Of a stretch of DNA of 64,000 nt, positions 8,344 to 20,979 are shown one piece after another. Both the position numbers and the translations under genes were made by a program. The stretch is from the NCBI GenBank assembly GCA_964393975.1, contig CAYMVO010000005.1, positions 192 to 64,191 of the forward strand. The letters run 5' to 3'. The notes under the pieces were generated by a model. The model made no database searches. It worked only from the letters and a program-made list of their open reading frames with translations, and had not been told where the DNA came from. The DNA comes from an uncultured Lachnospiraceae bacterium. Lineage in GTDB: Bacteria; Bacillota; Clostridia; Christensenellales; UBA1242. Position 1 is the first letter of the stretch; the number at the start of each line of letters is the position of its first letter.

Positions 8344-10296
8344 TCACTTAGCATTATATGTATCGTAAGCGGTTTTCTTATTAAAATTTGCATTTTCAGC
8401 AATATACTCTTTGCGCGCTTCAATATTATCACCCATTAGCACGCTAACGAGTCTTTCCGCCTCAGCTATATCACTGAGTTCCACACGCACAAGGCTACGT
8501 TTTCTAGGATCTAATGTAGTGTCCCATAGTTGTTCGGGGTTCATCTCACCTAATCCTTTATAACGCTGTAGGGTATAACCTTTACCTATTCGCTCTATCG
8601 TCTCAGGTAATTCCTTATCGGAGTAAACATACTCCTCAATCGCCCCTTTAGACACTTTGTATAGCGGTGGCATCCCCATATAGACATATCCACCCGTCAC
8701 CAAATCTCTCATATATCTAAAGAAGAACGTCAAAAGTATCGCTCTAATATGCGCTCCGTCTTGGTCGGCATCGGCTAAAATGATGACTTTATGATATTTT
8801 AAATTTTTAGGATCAAAATCTTCACCTACACCCGCGCCCAAGGCACTAATAAGACTCCTAATCTCTTCATTTTGTAGCACTTGGTCGAGTCTCTTTTTCT
8901 CGGCGTTTAGCGGTTTACCTCTCAGTGGCAACACCGCTTGAAACGCTCTATCTCGCCCTTGCTTTGCACTACCACCTGCCGAATCACCCTCCACGATAAA
9001 GAGTTCGTTAAGTTCGGCTTTCTTGCCTGTACAAGCGCTGAGTTTACCTACCAAATTAAAACTATCAATACTGTTTTTTGCCCTTGTGAGTTCTTTCGCT
9101 TTTTTCGCAGCCTCACGAGCTTTCATAGCAGTCTTTGCTTTTGCTATGACCGCCTCCATAGCACTAGTATATTCTTTGCGTTCTATGAGTTTGCTAAGTT
9201 CATTAGTAACAATATTTTCAACTTCTTGTTTTGCTTCTGGGTTGCCGAGTTTGGTTTTTGTTTGCCCTTCAAACTGTACGTTTTGCATCTTGATACTAAG
9301 CGCTAGCGTGATGCCTTCTCTAAAGTCCTCCCCCATAAGATTTGTTTCTTTTTCCTTTAGAAGATTGTTTTTTCTCGCATAATCGTTAAACACTTTTGTA
9401 ATGGCAGATTTGAGTCCTGTCTCGTGCGTACCGCCCTCGGTGGTAGGTATATTATTGACATAAGAAAACACATTTTCATTGTACCCATCGGTGTAACTAA
9501 CGGCGAGTTCTAGTTTTATCACTTTAGAACTACCCTCAATATACATACAAGCTGGCGAAATCAATGTATTTTTATCCGCATTGATGTATTTTACAAAATC
9601 TACTAGTCCGCCCTCATAATGATAAATTGCAGTCTCGTTGTCTCTCTCATCTATTAGAGAAATCTTTACTCCTTTATTTAAAAACGCTAGTTCTTTCAAC
9701 CTCTTGCTAACGACTTCTTTACTAAAAGTCGCATCTTTAAACACATCACTATCAGGTAAAAACCTCACTATCGTACCGCTCTTTGTGGTTGTGCCAATAG
9801 GTTTTAAATGCTCTTTGACGATACCGCTCTTGACTTTGCCTGATGAGTCCACTACACTCTCAAACTCCATATAATAAGTCTTTCCTCGTCTATTTACCCA
9901 AACCTTAGTCCACTTGCTAAGTGCGTTAGTCACAGAAGCACCTACGCCATGCAACCCGCCTGAATAGTCATAGTTGTCGTTGTTAAACTTTCCACCCGCG
10001 TGTAGTTGCGTAAATACGACCTCTACACCTGATATCTTGAGTGTAGGATGCGGATCGACTGGTATACCACGACCATCATCTTCTACGCTAGCACTGCCAT
10101 CTTTATGTAAAGTAACCTTTATCTCCTTACCGAACCCATTACTGACTTCATCCATAGCGTTATCTACGATCTCCCAAAGCAAATGGTGCAAACCTTTAAC
10201 GCCAGTAGTACCAATATACATACCAGGGCGAAGTCTCACCGCGTCCAACCCTTCTAGTACAACAATGTCTTTCGCATCATAATTTGTCTTAGTCAT
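8344..10296 (-). CDS. Type IIA DNA topoisomerase subunit B (GyrB/ParE family)
   Basis: 650 aa. GHKL ATPase motifs (LEGLDAVRLRPGMYIG, GLHHLLWEIVDNAMDE), Toprim EGDSAGG, and PLRGKPLN. It lies immediately upstream of the A subunit. Confidence 0.85.
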   Translation of the reverse strand: MTKTNYDAKDIVVLEGLDAVRLRPGMYIGTTGVKGLHHLLWEIVDNAMDEVSNGFGKEIKVTLHKDGSASVEDDGRGIPVDPHPTLKISGVEVVFTQLHAGGKFNNDNYDYSGGLHGVGASVTNALSKWTKVWVNRRGKTYYMEFESVVDSSGKVKSGIVKEHLKPIGTTTKSGTIVRFLPDSDVFKDATFSKEVVSKRLKELAFLNKGVKISLIDERDNETAIYHYEGGLVDFVKYINADKNTLISPACMYIEGSSKVIKLELAVSYTDGYNENVFSYVNNIPTTEGGTHETGLKSAITKVFNDYARKNNLLKEKETNLMGEDFREGITLALSIKMQNVQFEGQTKTKLGNPEAKQEVENIVTNELSKLIERKEYTSAMEAVIAKAKTAMKAREAAKKAKELTRAKNSIDSFNLVGKLSACTGKKAELNELFIVEGDSAGGSAKQGRDRAFQAVLPLRGKPLNAEKKRLDQVLQNEEIRSLISALGAGVGEDFDPKNLKYHKVIILADADQDGAHIRAILLTFFFRYMRDLVTGGYVYMGMPPLYKVSKGAIEEYVYSDKELPETIERIGKGYTLQRYKGLGEMNPEQLWDTTLDPRKRSLVRVELSDIAEAERLVSVLMGDNIEARKEYIAENANFNKKTAYDTYNAK

Positions 10297-14700: not shown

Positions 14701-16446
14701 TTACAACTCAAGTGTTCTTTCTTTAATTTCTTTAGAAATCTTACTAACAAACTCATCAATATCATATTCTATCGTATCTTTGTTACTTCGCGTTCTAACA
14801 GAAATTACACCTTTTTCAAATTCTTTTTCTCCAATAATTAAGATATAAGGGGTTTTAAATTTTACTGCTTCTCTTACTCTATAGGATAAACTTTCATTTC
14901 TATCATCAATTTCACTTCTAACACCCTCACGCTCAAGAATGCTGTTTATATTTTTTGCATAATCCACAAATTTGTCATTAATAGTAATAACTTTTACTTG
15001 ATTCGGACTTAACCATAACGGGAAGGCTCCCGCAAAATGCTCAATAATTATCCCCATAAATCTATCTATTGACCCAAAAACAACACGATGGAGCATATAT
15101 GGAGTTTCTTTTGAACCTTCACGCGACACATAATCAATATCAAATCTTTTTGGAAGTTGCATATCTAATTGAATTGTTCCACATTGCCACGTTCTTCCCA
15201 AGGCATCTTGTATATGAATATCAATTTTAGGTCCGTAGAACGCCCCATCCCCTTCATTTATCACAAAATCTTTTCCGCACGATATTAAAGCTTTTTTCAA
15301 ACCATCTTCTGCAATTCTCCATTCTTCAACAGTTCCAACATGATCCTCTGGCATCGTTGATAATTCTAAGTGATATTTCAGACCAAATACATTATAAATT
15401 TTATCCTCAAGACTTAATATATTTATAATTTCATCCGTCAATTGTTCTGGCATAATAAATATATGAGCATCATCTTGAGTGAAGCATCTTACCCTTAATA
15501 GTCCATGTAGTGTACCACTTGATTCTTTCCTATGCACTTTACCTAATTCAGCAATTCTCAATGGTAATTCTTTGTATGAATGCATATTCTCTTTGTAGTA
15601 CAATATTGCACCAGGACAATTCATAGGTTTTATTGCGTAATCATCACCTTCATCTGCAATAAATGTATACATATTATCCTTATAATGATTCCAATGTCCC
15701 GATATCTCCCATAATTTTCTATTCATAGCCATTGGTGTTTCTATCTCTAGATACTTTGCTTTTATATGGTATTCTCTCCACATTTTAATCAATTCATTTT
15801 TAACAATTAATCCATTTGGAAGGTAAAAAGGCATCCCTGGAGCAAACTCACTTAAAGAAAAGAGTCCCAACTCTCTACCAAGTTTTCTATGATCTCTTTT
15901 TGACGCTTCCTCAATAAAGAGTAGATGTTGTTTTAGTTCTTCTGTAGTGTCGTAACAATAAACATACATACGCTGCATCATTTTATTTTTTTCACTACCA
16001 CGCCAATATGCACCGCTAACTCTATCTATTTTAAACGCAATATTTCTTAAAACCTTGGTGTTTTTAACGTGTGGACCGCGACACAAATCATCAAACACAT
16101 TTCCTAAATGATAAATACTAATCTCTTCACCTTCTGGCATCTCATTAATAAGTTCAAGTTTATAGGGTTCATATTTAAATAATTTTAAAGCATCTTCTTT
16201 TGAAATGACTTCTTTTATCATATCCAAATCTTGATTTATTATTTCTTTCATCTTTTTTTCAATTATTCCATAATCGTTAGGATTAAGCGTGTGTTCCATA
16301 TCAAAATCATAATAAAACCCTGTATCAATTGCAGGTCCAATCCCAAATTTCACATTCCCAAAAAGTTCTTTAACAGCGCAAGCTAGAACATGCGCCATCG
16401 TATGACGCTTAACTTTTATTTCGTCATCAATTCCTTTAATATCCAT
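14701..16446 (-). CDS. thrS: Threonine--tRNA ligase, short form without the N-terminal TGS domain
   Basis: Track start is 16464 (TTG). ATG 16446 follows AAGGAG. It begins directly at the editing-domain HTMAHVLACAV motif, followed by class II catalytic and anticodon-binding regions. Confidence 0.85.
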   Translation of the reverse strand: MDIKGIDDEIKVKRHTMAHVLACAVKELFGNVKFGIGPAIDTGFYYDFDMEHTLNPNDYGIIEKKMKEIINQDLDMIKEVISKEDALKLFKYEPYKLELINEMPEGEEISIYHLGNVFDDLCRGPHVKNTKVLRNIAFKIDRVSGAYWRGSEKNKMMQRMYVYCYDTTEELKQHLLFIEEASKRDHRKLGRELGLFSLSEFAPGMPFYLPNGLIVKNELIKMWREYHIKAKYLEIETPMAMNRKLWEISGHWNHYKDNMYTFIADEGDDYAIKPMNCPGAILYYKENMHSYKELPLRIAELGKVHRKESSGTLHGLLRVRCFTQDDAHIFIMPEQLTDEIINILSLEDKIYNVFGLKYHLELSTMPEDHVGTVEEWRIAEDGLKKALISCGKDFVINEGDGAFYGPKIDIHIQDALGRTWQCGTIQLDMQLPKRFDIDYVSREGSKETPYMLHRVVFGSIDRFMGIIIEHFAGAFPLWLSPNQVKVITINDKFVDYAKNINSILEREGVRSEIDDRNESLSYRVREAVKFKTPYILIIGEKEFEKGVISVRTRSNKDTIEYDIDEFVSKISKEIKERTLEL

Positions 16447-16668
16447 ATTAATCTCCTTTCTCAATTATCTAAGCATTAAAGACAAAATCATACAACAATG
16501 ATGAGAGGTTTATAAACAGTATTCGTACACAACATATATTAAACAACAACTCTAAAGCAATTATCCTATTTTAAATTAAAACTAACTTTTACCTACAAAC
16601 AATAATACAATTGTCTTTCACCACTTATTTAATTGCTAATTATATACTATACAATTAAACTTGTTTTG

Positions 16669-17580
16669 TCAACTATTTTTGTAAATTAACTTATTTTGAG
16701 TCTTTAGTTTTTTTAATACATTTGTAGCAAAATTTAAGACATCTAGAAGTTCACTGAAGTCCAAGGGTTTCATTTTGCAATGAAGATAAAAATAATATGA
16801 CAATAACTTTAATGCGGCATAGTTAACCAAGCCATAAAAATCAACCTTTTTTTCACTATAAGCATTGTACACATCTAGATACGAATATATGCTCTTTTTA
16901 TATTTATTAAAAACTAAATTATAATCACTCAAACTAAAATTTCTAGTGAAAATGAGGTCTCCTATATCAACATAAACTGAAGATAATATAGACAAATCAA
17001 AATCAATAAACACATACTCACTATTTTCTAATTTGATATAATTATTTGAAGTTAAATCATTATGAATAATACAATCAGATATACCATATTTGTCTACAAA
17101 ATTATTGTACAAATTGTCAATTAATTGTTGTATTCTTGCCTTTAAGTCCTGTGAGATCTCCAACAACTGCAAACTTTTAATGGGATATGTATAAAATTTC
17201 TCCTTAAACCCTAAAAGAAGTCTATTTAGCTTAATATTTTTAATACAAATATCAATATTAAAAAGATTTTTATTAAAAGATTTTTTATATTTTATTGAAG
17301 CATTATGAAAAAGTGCTAATGACTTAAATATATATTCATCAAACACCTGAGATTTTGCACCATCCACATAATTTTGTATTTCATAGTTTCCATCTTTAAG
17401 CGAGAGTGTTGAAGTAATTGGTGTATTTATTCCGTTATTATTTAAAAATTGTATAAAATCATTTTTACCTCTACACCAAGAATTATCAAAACAATACAAC
17501 AATTTTTTCAAAATATACTTACAATTATTAATACTTATCAAACTCACATCTTCTTGCAAATTAATTATTTCTATTTTCAT
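16669..17580 (-). CDS. APH/choline-kinase-fold phosphotransferase, CotS-like bacterial spore kinase family
   Basis: 303 aa. Brenner-type IIHNDLTSNNYI and downstream FIDFDLS motifs. Own RBS GGGAGG. Confidence 0.55.
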   Translation of the reverse strand: MKIEIINLQEDVSLISINNCKYILKKLLYCFDNSWCRGKNDFIQFLNNNGINTPITSTLSLKDGNYEIQNYVDGAKSQVFDEYIFKSLALFHNASIKYKKSFNKNLFNIDICIKNIKLNRLLLGFKEKFYTYPIKSLQLLEISQDLKARIQQLIDNLYNNFVDKYGISDCIIHNDLTSNNYIKLENSEYVFIDFDLSILSSVYVDIGDLIFTRNFSLSDYNLVFNKYKKSIYSYLDVYNAYSEKKVDFYGLVNYAALKLLSYYFYLHCKMKPLDFSELLDVLNFATNVLKKLKTQNKLIYKNS

Positions 17581-17601
17581 TTTTACCTCCCAAAATACTA
17601 A

Positions 17602-17635
17602 GAAAAAGCAAAAAGATTTAACTTTTTGCTTTTTC
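17602..17635 (-). terminator. Strong hairpin between the mini-ORF and the kinase gene (terminator or attenuator)
   Basis: Minus strand reads GAAAAAGCAAAAAG-TTAAAT-CTTTTTGCTTTTTC, a 14-bp perfect stem followed by a T-rich tail. Confidence 0.6.
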
Positions 17636-17643
17636 CTTCTGTT

Positions 17644-17703
17644 TTATTTAAAACTGCCACAGGTAGCACAAGAATTTTCAATTAAAACAACTTTAACTTC
17701 CAT
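17644..17703 (-). CDS. Unannotated 19-aa peptide MEVKVVLIENSCATCGSFK (candidate radical-SAM substrate or RiPP precursor)
   Basis: ATG 17703..17701 is preceded by GGAGG with a 5-nt spacer. TAA stop at 17646..17644. It lies 63 nt downstream of the rSAM stop on the same strand and is followed by a 14-bp hairpin. It falls below the ORF-track length cutoff. Confidence 0.5.
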   Translation of the reverse strand: MEVKVVLIENSCATCGSFK

Positions 17704-17766
17704 AAAAACCTCCATCAATTTATTTATATTAAACAAGATATATTAAAAATCTCGATAATATACAGT

Positions 17767-18840
17767 TTAATCATCCAGCCAACAAGTCCCATCCGATGCG
17801 AAATAAGAACCTCCAAAGAAGTTAGAGGTAGCCCTACAACCGCCACAGATTCTTTTATGTTTACAATTATTACATTTACCATCAAATTGTCTACTAAATA
17901 GCCTTTTAACTAAAGGACTTGTGACATATGCTTGAACAACTTCTTCCACATCATTATAGTCATTTAAACATAAAATTTTCTCATTAAACACTGAGCAAGG
18001 TGTAATACACAAATCTGTATTCACATTAAAACAATCTATTCCAGCGGTGCAACCGCCAAAGACAGCTGGATTGTTTTCTAATTTATAAACATCTAAACTC
18101 ATCCAAGGATTGTGTTCAACCAAACATTTCAAAGGATCCTCTGTTACAAGTTCTATCTTCCCATTATGCTTTATTGCTAGAGATGCTAAATTATATAAGA
18201 ACTCTTTTTTTTCTTGAGGTTTTAAATGTTGAGAACCCACTGCCCCTGCACCACTTGGTATAACACCACCAACACCTAACCTTTTTACACCTAATGGCAT
18301 TAAAAGATTAATCATGTCCTCTATTTCGTTCATTGTAATTTTATTAATAGTCATTCTCACAGAAGAAGTCAGATGTTCAAAATTCTGAATCATCTTTAAT
18401 GCCTTGATTGCCTTATCGAAAGCACCAGCATAATTTCTATTCTCATCGTGAATTTTACTATTGACACTATCCAAACTTATTTGTATCGTTAAATTTTTAA
18501 AATTCAATTTATCCAAATGAGACAAGTTGTCTATGTTTAATAAGGAACCATTTGTTGTTATAACAACCTCATTAATATCATAAGCTCTCACTAATTCCAT
18601 AATTTTTAAAAATTGAGGATGAATAAATGGCTCACCGCCTGATATTGTTAAATTAAAATTAGAATTACTATTCTGCGTTGCAAAATCTAAAAACAGTTTC
18701 ATCTTTTCAATTGATATTGAAGTCGGTTTTTCATTTATTGCTCTACAATGTTTGCATTTCATGTTGCAACACCCAGTTATTTCAATCTGTGCATGCGAAA
18801 AAGAAGTTGAGTAATTAACGCCATTAGCTTCTATTTTCAT
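17767..18840 (-). CDS. Radical SAM enzyme with a C-terminal SPASM (auxiliary 4Fe-4S) domain
   Basis: Track start is 18855 (GTG). ATG 18840 follows GGGAGG. CNMKCKHC (CxxxCxxC) sits near residue 25, GGEPF is present, and the C-terminal Cys clusters are GGCTAGIDCF..CITPC and CNNCKHKRICGGCRA. Confidence 0.85.
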   Translation of the reverse strand: MKIEANGVNYSTSFSHAQIEITGCCNMKCKHCRAINEKPTSISIEKMKLFLDFATQNSNSNFNLTISGGEPFIHPQFLKIMELVRAYDINEVVITTNGSLLNIDNLSHLDKLNFKNLTIQISLDSVNSKIHDENRNYAGAFDKAIKALKMIQNFEHLTSSVRMTINKITMNEIEDMINLLMPLGVKRLGVGGVIPSGAGAVGSQHLKPQEKKEFLYNLASLAIKHNGKIELVTEDPLKCLVEHNPWMSLDVYKLENNPAVFGGCTAGIDCFNVNTDLCITPCSVFNEKILCLNDYNDVEEVVQAYVTSPLVKRLFSRQFDGKCNNCKHKRICGGCRATSNFFGGSYFASDGTCWLDD

Positions 18841-18927
18841 ATTAACACCTCCCACTTACCCTACAGAATTTCTATCACTTATACAAAAAACATTATTTAC
18901 GTAATCATTAAAATTAATATAATATAA

Positions 18928-18955
18928 AGTGTAGCATAAAAATGTGACATGTCAA
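18928..18955 (-). promoter_or_regulatory. Sigma-A-like promoter of the rSAM operon, -35 overlapped by the palindrome TGACATGTCA
   Basis: Minus strand reads TTGACA (18955..18950), a 16-nt spacer ending in TGC, then TACACT (18933..18928). A 10-bp perfect palindrome lies at 18945..18954. Confidence 0.45.
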
Positions 18956-18991
18956 GTAAATTACAAAACTTTATATTTAAAATTTTGTTAA

Positions 18992-19012
18992 TGTTAATTC
19001 TCAAAGTAAATT
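18992..19012. promoter_or_regulatory. Copy B of the shared 21-nt upstream motif TGTTAATTCTCAAAGTAAATT
   Basis: Identical to 5701..5721. It lies 36 nt from the -35 of the rSAM operon promoter. Confidence 0.5.
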
Positions 19013-19145
19013 TCATAATGAAATTTAAATGAATTTACTATGAAGTGAACCCCCTTTGCACCGCAAAAATGAGGTTTCACTTCACTTTGGTGTATGCATT
19101 GTTTTTGTAATTAGGTTTCCGAATACAAACGCTTTAGGAGTGTCA

Positions 19146-19205
19146 TTGAAAGAATTTTTTGATGATAAGGTTTTTGATTATAGTAATTTTGAAAATTTAG
19201 AATAA
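19146..19205 (+). CDS. Candidate 19-codon mini-ORF (M)KEFFDDKVFDYSNFENLE, TTG start
   Basis: AGGAG at 19136..19140, a 5-nt spacer, TTG at 19146, and TAA at 19203..19205. It lies in the 543-nt gap between the divergent rSAM and ABC-F genes. There is no conservation evidence. Confidence 0.2.
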   Translation: MKEFFDDKVFDYSNFENLE

Positions 19206-19340
19206 TTAAAATTAGATTTCTATCAACTAAAAAAATCAACAATATTTAAAATTATCTCAACTTTTAAAACATTAAAAATATTTAGTGTTTTTGGGTTGAG
19301 ATTTTTATTAAGTTATGCTATTATATATTATAAGGACAAA

Positions 19341-19370
19341 AAGAGGTTTGAATTTTACAACCTCTTTTTT
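19341..19370 (+). terminator. Terminator-like hairpin 29 nt upstream of the ABC-F start codon
   Basis: AAGAGGTT-N10-AACCTCTT followed by TTTT. A second hairpin, ATCTCAAC...GTTGAGAT plus TTTTT, lies at about 19253..19315. Confidence 0.4.
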
Positions 19371-19383
19371 AGAGAATTAATAA

Positions 19384-20979
<1,596 letters not shown>

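Follow-up and report, generated by a model that had tools for sequence, protein, structure and literature searches.

Organisation of the locus

The 64-kb stretch of DNA analysed here (called the window; G+C 34.8%), from an uncultured Lachnospiraceae bacterium, carries on its minus strand a small cassette consisting of a gene for a radical S-adenosylmethionine (SAM) enzyme with a SPASM domain, a gene for a Cys-containing peptide of 19 amino acids (aa), a stem-loop and a gene for a kinase-fold protein, with the threonyl-tRNA synthetase (ThrRS) gene thrS downstream (Table 1). The peptide gene starts 63 nt past the stop codon of the radical SAM gene. An earlier reading of the DNA made from its letters alone (the sequence-only reading) had pointed out the radical SAM gene, the 60-nt open reading frame (ORF), its GGAGG site, a 14-bp hairpin and the kinase-fold gene, and all of these are present where it placed them. 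Around the cassette the window holds ordinary chromosomal genes, including gyrB, thrS, typA/bipA and those for an ABC-F protein, dUTPase and an RlmA-like methyltransferase. The region is probably a compact chromosomal operon resembling those for RiPPs (peptides synthesised by ribosomes and modified after translation), and would then represent a family not curated previously.

The window contains 14 GGAGG-N4-9-ATG sites, a single one of which opens an ORF of 15-40 aa, and this is the peptide gene. Homologs of the radical SAM protein were traced to their contigs, scanning one genome per species and, in addition, a metagenome collection. Of the 69 genome loci, at least 60 have a matching small ORF beside the orthologous radical SAM gene, as do most of the metagenome loci fetched, and the pairing of peptide and enzyme recurs in more than 100 bacterial and archaeal loci. 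The nearest relatives, with radical SAM proteins 75%, 67% and 58% identical to that of the window, encode MEVEVVMVENSCATCGSFK, MEVKVILIKNSCATCGSFK and MEEKKTVEVVLVENSCATCGSFK, respectively; in Faecalitalea cylindroides (61% identical) the gap between the radical SAM gene and the kinase homolog encodes MENKEVVEVVLVDNSCATCGSFK, and a relative with a 51% identical enzyme encodes (MN)KVKEVIKVVVVKDSCATCGSFK. Conservation of the peptide spans radical SAM identities from 75% to about 33%, the latter in Patescibacteria and DPANN archaea. The peptide gene lies upstream of the radical SAM gene in most lineages and downstream of it in the sub-branch of the window.

Among 12 relatives, variable sites in the nine core codons fall twice on first, twice on second and nine times on third positions, and the pairwise codon differences are 236 synonymous vs 78 non-synonymous; this pattern and this excess of synonymous changes are those of a coding sequence on which purifying selection acts. 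The 19-aa ORF is a real gene, and its peptide is nearly always accompanied by members of a single orthologous group of radical SAM enzymes. The conservation in sequence and position that the sequence-only reading had proposed to look for was thereby found, as were translation signals in the form of the GGAGG site and the codon-position pattern. An in-frame ATG four codons upstream (17704..17715, minus strand), which overlaps the GGAGG, would give MEVFMEVK...; the 19-aa start is favoured because the nearest relatives begin with MEV(K/E)V.

A stable hairpin follows the stop codon of the peptide gene in 66% of 56 loci (z < -2 against shuffled sequences), with a median dG of -20 kcal/mol over 70 nt, and it is kept among the closest relatives though the stem sequences differ. 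Three terminator-like sites were found vs 0.5 expected in 3.1 kb, and the hairpin at 17602..17635 is one of them. It is probably a partial terminator or an mRNA stabiliser. A scan of the window against Rfam gave no element at the gathering threshold, and a permissive scan of 16380..19400 gave nothing credible, including no T-box before the window thrS (gap 16465..16668).

Table 1. Features of the cassette and other sites of interest in the window
Feature	Positions	Strand	Basis or remarks
Promoter-like site TTGACA-16-TACACT with TG extension, 5' of the radical SAM gene	18928..18955	minus	consensus match only, 10/12 positions
Radical SAM/SPASM ORF, ATG start, 357 aa, presumed peptide maturase	17767..18840	minus	ORF list, Pfam, fold
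GGAGG ribosome-binding site, 5 nt ahead of the peptide ATG	17709..17713	minus	read from the sequence
Precursor-like peptide gene, MEVKVVLIENSCATCGSFK plus stop, 19 aa, 60 nt	17644..17703	minus	conservation, codon-position test
Stem-loop directly after the peptide stop	17600..17637	minus	16 pairs in extended form, 6-nt loop
Perfect 14-bp stem within it	17602..17635	minus	6-nt loop, terminator-like score
Kinase-fold ORF, 303 aa, with its own GGGAGG ribosome-binding site	16669..17580	minus	weak Pfam APH match, conserved motifs, fold
thrS (ThrRS)	14701..16446	minus	about 200 nt downstream of the kinase; TIGR00418
Promoter-like TTGACA-17-TAGTAT over the kinase stop codon	16672..16644		
Inverted repeat of 11-12 bp, GTGAAGTGAAACC ... 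GGTTCACTTCA, between the radical SAM promoter and the divergent ABC-F gene	~19041..19090		by eye only
Giant ORF, 4543 aa	45767..59398	minus	without Pfam match at E <= 1e-5

The peptide family and its neighbours

The peptides are 19-45 aa long and share an N-terminus rich in Lys and Arg, followed by the strand-like stretch (K/R)-V-x-(I/V)-x-K-(G/N)-(S/T), the core C-x-(T/I/R)-(C/S)-(G/D/E) and a tail of few residues. In a neighbour-joining tree the radical SAM proteins form two large groups. Group I, to which the window belongs, has the core C-x-T-(C/S)-G-(S/D)-(F/Y/W)-K with variants such as CATCGSFK, CCTCGSFK, CSTSGSYK and CSTCGDYK, and its hosts are Bacillota, several Patescibacteria, DPANN and Proteobacteria-labelled assemblies, taxon labels being throughout those given by the assembly depositors. 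Group II, whose hosts are nearly all Patescibacteria and DPANN, has its core ...(K/R)VRIGKGSC-x-(I/R)-C-(D/E) at the extreme C-terminus. The core and the adjacent leader are nearly identical in archaea and bacteria, for instance as ...VRIGKGSC(S/A)ICD. The family is much wider than Bacillota, with labelled hosts among Saccharibacteria, Paceibacterota, Moranbacteria, Falkowbacteria, Campbellbacteria, Doudnabacteria, Woesearchaeota and Nanoarchaeota as well as Rickettsiales, Bdellovibrionales, uncultured Bacilli/'Mycoplasma', Oscillospiraceae, Gemmiger, Planctomycetota and Riflebacteria.

In the window peptide the core reads SCATCGSFK, with the invariant Cys at position 11 (C11) and Thr13 two residues later. 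The sequence-only reading had described a core with two Cys, and both are present in this peptide, but only one is invariant across the family; several Group I peptides hold a single Cys, e.g. ...NTCSTSGSYK, and a CxxC metal site or a disulfide can therefore not be a common feature. When eight peptide variants were scanned against NCBIfam, the only match was a weak one of relatives' peptides to the methanobactin-like MovA (NF050127, 18.6 bits, below the cutoff of 33), the window peptide itself being unmatched. The general build, a Cys core preceded by a short basic leader, is as in MovA, whereas no MbnB/MbnC-type enzyme is found here, and the match is treated as a resemblance in leader style.

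All ORFs of the 69 genome loci were clustered and the clusters then annotated. A class I methyltransferase of about 160 aa stands directly after the radical SAM gene in Group II (22 loci), and other recurring neighbours are an Amidohydro_2-type metal hydrolase or decarboxylase-like protein with invariant H-x-H, H, H and D ligand positions (14 loci), a small GNAT protein (13 loci), the kinase (11 loci) and an unannotatable protein of about 255 aa (3 loci). The order in the nearest relatives is radical SAM gene, peptide, kinase, amidohydrolase and thrS. An accessory protein of three loci ('cluster 12'; L011, L014 and L019) looks by eye like a nucleotidyltransferase of the CCA-adding type; as there was no match in Pfam, NCBIfam or PADLOC or in a profile search of the PDB, the assignment is not claimed.

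A RelA/SpoT-family gene (HD_4 + TGS) flanks the cassette in nine Bacillota loci (L018 335..1792, L020, L033, L094 2564..3997, L100, L108, L115, L140 and L149), and in L018 and L108 the cassette sits between rel and thrS. Genes typical of mobile elements are found close to the cassette in some relatives from Bacillota (L094 1..1460; L096 1..5399; L001 6529..7269) and encode a phage integrase, RhuM, type IV secretion system-type proteins, ClpP and a transposase-like helix-turn-helix protein; they hint at horizontal mobility. Carriage by phages was considered and rejected, as no close relative is present in IMG/VR viral contigs, where the best match is 27% identical.

The radical SAM enzyme

The radical SAM protein of the window matches Pfam Radical_SAM with E = 3e-19, and its CxxxCxxC motif is C25-N-M-K-C29-K-H-C32. 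These three Cys are invariant in an alignment of 38 homologs, as are seven Cys of the SPASM region (C264, C282, C323, C326, C332, C335 and C353), which make up a full SPASM set from which two auxiliary Fe-S clusters are expected. In the AlphaFold2 (AF2) model (predicted local distance difference test score, pLDDT, 95.8) only three short strands precede the barrel and the motif begins at residue 25, so that the protein has no RiPP recognition element (RRE); a PqqD-like gene is not found among the conserved neighbours either. Alignment and model thus agree with the sequence-only reading, which had described an enzyme lacking an RRE and ending in a SPASM Cys cluster.

The nearest structures found with Foldseek are SkfB, SuiB, CteB, anaerobic sulfatase-maturating enzyme (anSME), PqqE, ChlB and TigE, most of which are peptide or protein maturases, and SkfB is the sole PDB relative by sequence. 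Neither the protein of the window nor one from Patescibacteria attained any curated NCBIfam cutoff, and the subfamily models, which had been suggested as a check, therefore place it in no curated subfamily with a known non-peptide substrate. The best scores are those of TIGR04053 (125 bits vs a cutoff of 395) and NirJ2 (118-154 vs 500), followed by weaker, partial matches below cutoff to AhbD, WgkB, the GeoRSP system, the ACGX system, AlbA, ScmE/F, mycofactocin, PapB and PqqE. The models for sactipeptide and ranthipeptide maturases stayed far below their cutoffs (PapB 69.9-83 vs 340, AlbA 89 vs 850, StsB 75 vs 625), as did the AhbD/NirJ models (99-154 bits vs 500-650), and no tetrapyrrole genes are among the conserved neighbours. 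The viperin model pVip of PADLOC gave 60-72 bits over residues 20-198 only, and that of NCBIfam 64 vs 180; since a SPASM domain is present and the scores are below cutoff, the enzyme does not fit the defence type in which a prokaryotic viperin (pVip) is paired with a kinase.

The kinase

The kinase-fold protein scores 18.1 with Pfam APH (PF01636; cutoff 23.2) and has a match of 1e-5 to a fragment of Bud32. In the alignment of its family the catalytic set K25, H173-N-D175, N180 and D193-F-D195 is invariant. The AF2 model (pLDDT 91) finds YtaA, the choline kinase LicA, fructosamine-3-kinase (FN3K), APH(2''), the amicoumacin kinase AmiN, homoserine kinase II and aminopropanol kinase in Foldseek with a probability of 1.00 for a fold of the APH/choline-kinase type, and these matches of the predicted structure are all small-molecule kinases. 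An index of 5.8 billion proteins holds 22 homologs, and an exhaustive profile search of 1.84 billion representatives gave 29 clusters at E <= 1e-30, past which the scores fall steadily, with no full-length protein above about 75 bits. Every kinase homolog in the fetched loci clusters with the radical SAM gene. The kinase, of a tiny family that always stands beside this enzyme, is therefore a dedicated partner in the Bacillota part of Group I and not a stray spore-coat kinase, and its catalytic residues are intact. In an alphaproteobacterial locus the cluster contains instead a P-loop kinase that is not homologous to it.

The sequence-only reading had left two options for the kinase, of which the dedicated partner is upheld and the unrelated spore-coat kinase is not, the family being confined to loci with the radical SAM gene. 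Assignment to the CotS/YtaA spore-coat kinases was rejected at 17% identity to YtaA and a template modelling (TM) score of 0.60.

These data also bear on a different account of the locus, namely that the 19-aa ORF arose by chance or encodes an unrelated small protein, next to a radical SAM enzyme of the AhbD/NirJ or anSME type and a CotS/YtaA-like kinase. It is true that NirJ2, AhbD and NirJ are among the top NCBIfam similarities and that YtaA of B. subtilis is the best structural match of the kinase, and anSME has a similar length, no RRE, a full SPASM domain and a TM score of about 0.69 to the window enzyme, and acts on Cys in a short motif. The account is nevertheless strongly disfavoured, and in our opinion highly improbable, considering the conserved peptide with its coding signature in more than 100 loci, NirJ/AhbD scores of 100-154 bits vs cutoffs of 500, and a kinase family of about 29 clusters among 1.84 billion representatives that is always found beside the radical SAM gene. 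The peptide does not contain the sulfatase motif C/S-x-P/A-x-R and comes from a dedicated mini-gene, sulfatase and heme genes are not among the conserved neighbours, and the anSME model is absent from the best 25 NCBIfam matches of the enzyme.

Linkage to threonyl-tRNA synthetase

The window thrS, which lies beyond the coordinates that the sequence-only reading had covered, scores 687 bits with TIGR00418 (cutoff 384). ThrRS is the commonest housekeeping neighbour of the cassette (15 of the 69 genome loci, window included), and the linked copies tested are all bona fide, either of the bacterial type with 580-617 aa or of the archaeal type with 473-510 aa and without the editing domain. Gaps of only 3-17 nt put thrS within the operon in L011, L018, L019 and L021, and many minimal loci consist of peptide, radical SAM enzyme and ThrRS only. 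Over the window, L004, L011, L012, L018, L019, L021, L023, L026, L027, L029, L034, L046, L053, L077, L092, L096-L098 and L105-L154, thrS stands next to the cluster or within it in roughly half of the loci with a Thr-type core.

With the pooled loci sorted by the residue at the second position after the Cys, 35 of the 75 with a Thr-type core have ThrRS as a neighbour, and none of the 75 has the isoleucyl- (IleRS) or arginyl-tRNA synthetase (ArgRS) there. The 41 loci with an Ile-type core have ThrRS in no case, IleRS in four (three distinct) and ArgRS in three, and the seven with an Arg-type core have neither ThrRS nor IleRS, and ArgRS in two. Restricted to loci with full flanks (at least 3 kb on each side), ThrRS adjoins 15 of 26 Thr-type vs 0 of 22 Ile- or Arg-type loci (Fisher p = 7e-6), and counted by lineage (radical SAM proteins at least 70% identical grouped) 18 of 35 vs 0 of 10; the metagenome set replicates the adjacency. 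The linkage to thrS is non-random. Groups I and II are two clades of the radical SAM enzyme, and the association with ThrRS is therefore confounded with clade.

IleRS adjoins the radical SAM gene in three Ile-type loci, from Woesearchaeota (L056 1983..4778, minus strand), Campbellbacteria (L060 6129..9719, plus strand) and Nanoarchaeota (L062 5838..8618, plus strand), and ArgRS is encoded two genes downstream in a pair of Saccharibacteria loci of the Arg type (L048 6959..8728 and L050 6980..8782) and also near Ile-type loci. The match between core residue and synthetase is solid only for Thr and ThrRS, the cases for Ile/IleRS and Arg/ArgRS being suggestive but too few. The IleRS of the Campbellbacteria locus has a histidine-phosphatase (His_Phos_1) domain inserted at residues 537-710.

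The window ThrRS is unremarkable within a large clade of proteins with 575-582 aa, in which hundreds share 64-82% identity and the named members are Christensenellales and Caccopulliclostridium. The cassette is missing at the thrS of relatives with 82%, 77% and 69% identity (three relatives, five contigs), and in L097 a T-box leader (9145..9341) stands between cassette and thrS. This suggests that the linked thrS is the host's own and probably a housekeeping copy; a resistant ThrRS carried by the cassette was considered and is disfavoured on the same grounds. The cassette has repeatedly been placed, or retained, beside the thrS of its host, which suggests a role of the product that is tied to ThrRS or to threonine-tRNA metabolism.

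Two other observations concern these sites. In two lineages (L004 613..700, plus strand, also L005 and L006; L096 5833..5920, minus strand), though not in the window, a non-canonical tRNA-like gene of 88 nt with the Thr anticodon GGU stands immediately upstream of the cassette. Its acceptor stem is of 8 bp, its variable arm is long with compensatory stem changes between the two copies, and the rest is 92-96% identical, although the neighbouring proteins are much more diverged. The closest relative of the window ThrRS (82%) has another cassette at the same site, between a RelA/SpoT-like gene and thrS (L087/L088 2183..5557, plus strand), which encodes a tRNA-synt_2-family protein of 344 aa, a weak radical SAM protein of 371 aa and a TehB-like methyltransferase of 421 aa.

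Microcin C represents the peptidyl-nucleotide class of tRNA synthetase inhibitors, with GNAT proteins as a precedent for immunity. In analogy, the modified peptide or a fragment of it might inhibit or engage ThrRS as a Trojan horse, with kinase, GNAT protein and amidohydrolase serving immunity or processing and the placement by thrS giving dosage protection or co-regulation. The adjacency counts (35/75 Thr-type vs 0/48 Ile/Arg-type loci in all, and the full-flank comparison above), the linkage of both bacterial and archaeal ThrRS types with short gaps and in minimal clusters, IleRS by three distinct Ile-type loci and ArgRS near two Arg-type loci are what such a reading would lead one to expect, and the kinase fold is like that of the antibiotic-resistance kinases APH and AmiN. 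Two lineages have the odd tRNA-like gene with its Thr anticodon next to the cassette. Shared with microcin C are a very short ribosomal precursor, accessory GNAT and hydrolase genes (here in relatives) and a genomic association with an aminoacyl-tRNA synthetase.

We nevertheless find the Trojan-horse reading quite unlikely. The ThrRS of the window is ordinary, the three 69-82% identical relatives examined lack the cassette, and the thrS of L097 with its own T-box looks like a housekeeping gene and not like a cassette-borne resistant copy. The Thr/ThrRS match is confounded with clade, while the IleRS and ArgRS cases are few and ArgRS is found near Ile-type loci too. The core enzyme is here a radical SAM protein, and an MccB-like adenylating enzyme is not among the recurring annotated neighbour clusters, no MccB-specific model having been run.

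Discussion

The best explanation of our data is a RiPP-like family with a Cys-derived crosslink as the most likely modification, which we regard as reasonably probable. From their co-occurrence we infer that the peptide is the substrate of the radical SAM enzyme. The leader, with its basic stretch and the (K/R)-V-x-(I/V)-x-K-(G/N)-(S/T) segment, would dock directly on the enzyme in place of binding to an RRE, and the enzyme would act at or beside the invariant C11. Abstraction of a hydrogen 2-4 residues downstream of the Cys would then most likely lead to a small C-terminal thioether ring of the sactipeptide or ranthipeptide type. The thioether is the most economical guess because of the C-X3-D/E spacing in Group II (Patescibacteria-type cores CSICD and CCRCE) and the likeness to thioether-forming enzymes; substrates of PapB carry a C-X3-Asp motif. 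The kinase may O-phosphorylate the modified core or a released fragment, with Thr13 and Ser16 as candidates conserved in the kinase loci, and this would serve tailoring or self-protection. The hairpin would tune the ratio of precursor to enzyme transcripts.

Several points weigh against this explanation. The thioether is a guess by analogy, and the residue four past the Cys is Gly in the branch of the window and Asp/Glu in the Patescibacteria branch, so that the proposed acceptor is not conserved. Among the loci found, the kinase is absent outside Bacillota and is therefore not part of the core mechanism. The amidohydrolase of the nearest relatives is not in the window, where the cassette may be reduced. 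Neither an exporter nor a leader protease is found in the window cassette or among the conserved neighbour clusters, as the sequence-only reading had already remarked for the operon itself. Finally, a core so unusually conserved between archaea and bacteria is more easily reconciled with a cofactor-like or target-constrained molecule than with a typical bacteriocin. The missing exporter and protease together with the cross-domain core leave a cofactor-like intracellular product, or one constrained by a target such as ThrRS, as real alternatives.

The first of these alternatives is a scaffold pathway like that of mycofactocin (MftA/MftB/MftC/MftE) or PQQ (PqqA/D/E), in which the peptide is disposable, the radical SAM enzyme modifies the Cys core and the amidohydrolase frees a small molecule for intracellular use after its phosphorylation, acetylation or methylation. 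The near-identity of core and leader between archaea and bacteria and the lack of exporter and leader protease are consistent with such a pathway, and so are the accessories of small-molecule type (Amidohydro_2-like protein, GNAT, methyltransferase and kinase fold) and the partial matches to the maturase models for mycofactocin and PqqE. A very small scaffold peptide whose C-terminal core is conserved, a SPASM radical SAM enzyme and, in relatives of the window cassette, a hydrolase with small-molecule tailoring enzymes are likewise in common. The maturase scores are however far under the cutoffs (MftC 82.6 vs 265, PqqE 70.9 vs 381), and no MftB- or PqqD-like RRE chaperone is found. The core is built on Cys and not on Val-Tyr or Glu/Tyr, the window peptide ends in GSFK and not in GVY, and the C-terminal tails vary by branch (GSFK, GSYK, D, E), which would be odd for one cofactor. 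The hydrolase is of the Amidohydro_2 family and not a creatininase or M16 protein, it is missing from the window, and no dependent oxidoreductase is among the conserved neighbours. A cofactor pathway seems to us unlikely, and we prefer the RiPP-like family with a crosslinked peptide.

Among known peptides of this kind, the ranthipeptides and sactipeptides (PapB/freyrasin, CteB/SCIFF-thermocellin, SkfB, AlbA) come closest. They share with the present system a short Cys precursor beside a radical SAM/SPASM enzyme and a hairpin after the precursor, the fold is nearest to SkfB and CteB, partial similarity is found to the PapB and AlbA hidden Markov models, and the C-X3-D/E spacing is present in the Patescibacteria cores. 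In contrast to them, the system described here has no RRE or PqqD-like partner, one invariant Cys, a precursor of only 19-45 aa, no protease or exporter, a kinase of small-molecule type, a linkage to thrS, and a core that is conserved between bacteria and archaea rather than hypervariable. Class V lanthipeptides have stand-alone APH-family kinases of the LxmK/SprPT type, and an APH-family kinase of this sort in a RiPP operon with Ser/Thr and Cys in the core is a common trait. They differ from our system in that a radical SAM enzyme is present here, the kinase family is separate and tiny, and no HopA1-like lyase or cyclase is among the window or conserved-neighbour genes, lyase-specific models not having been run.

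The system thus works like a radical SAM-modified peptide pathway and falls outside every named family tested, and its coupling to ThrRS is a feature that no current model explains. The sequence-only reading had not recognised the combination of peptide, radical SAM enzyme and kinase, and in agreement with this the peptide, the kinase family and the ThrRS linkage are not described in NCBIfam (June 2026), Pfam or PADLOC. Neither this combination nor that of radical SAM enzyme and ThrRS is described in the searchable literature, the coverage of which is incomplete, so that novelty is unproved.

It is tempting to speculate, at a low probability, that these are synthetase-coupled modified peptides in which the residue two past the Cys names the synthetase that is engaged, namely Thr for ThrRS in the branch of the window, Ile for IleRS in the Patescibacteria/DPANN branch and Arg for ArgRS in a sub-branch of Saccharibacteria. 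The product could then be an inhibitor, in the manner of a Trojan-horse-like effector belonging to host-dependent microbes, or it could regulate or partner the synthetase of the cell itself, and kinase, GNAT protein and amidohydrolase would have processing or immunity functions.

If the interpretation as a RiPP-like family is correct, a widespread and so far uncurated family joins the radical SAM-modified peptides, with a precursor of 19 aa that would be among the shortest known and an RRE-free maturase that must recognise its peptide directly. The family is present in human and animal gut Bacillota and also in Patescibacteria, DPANN archaea and further lineages with small genomes, for which few pathways to natural products are known, and its repeated, branch-specific placement by thrS would offer a testable tie between a modified peptide and aminoacyl-tRNA metabolism.

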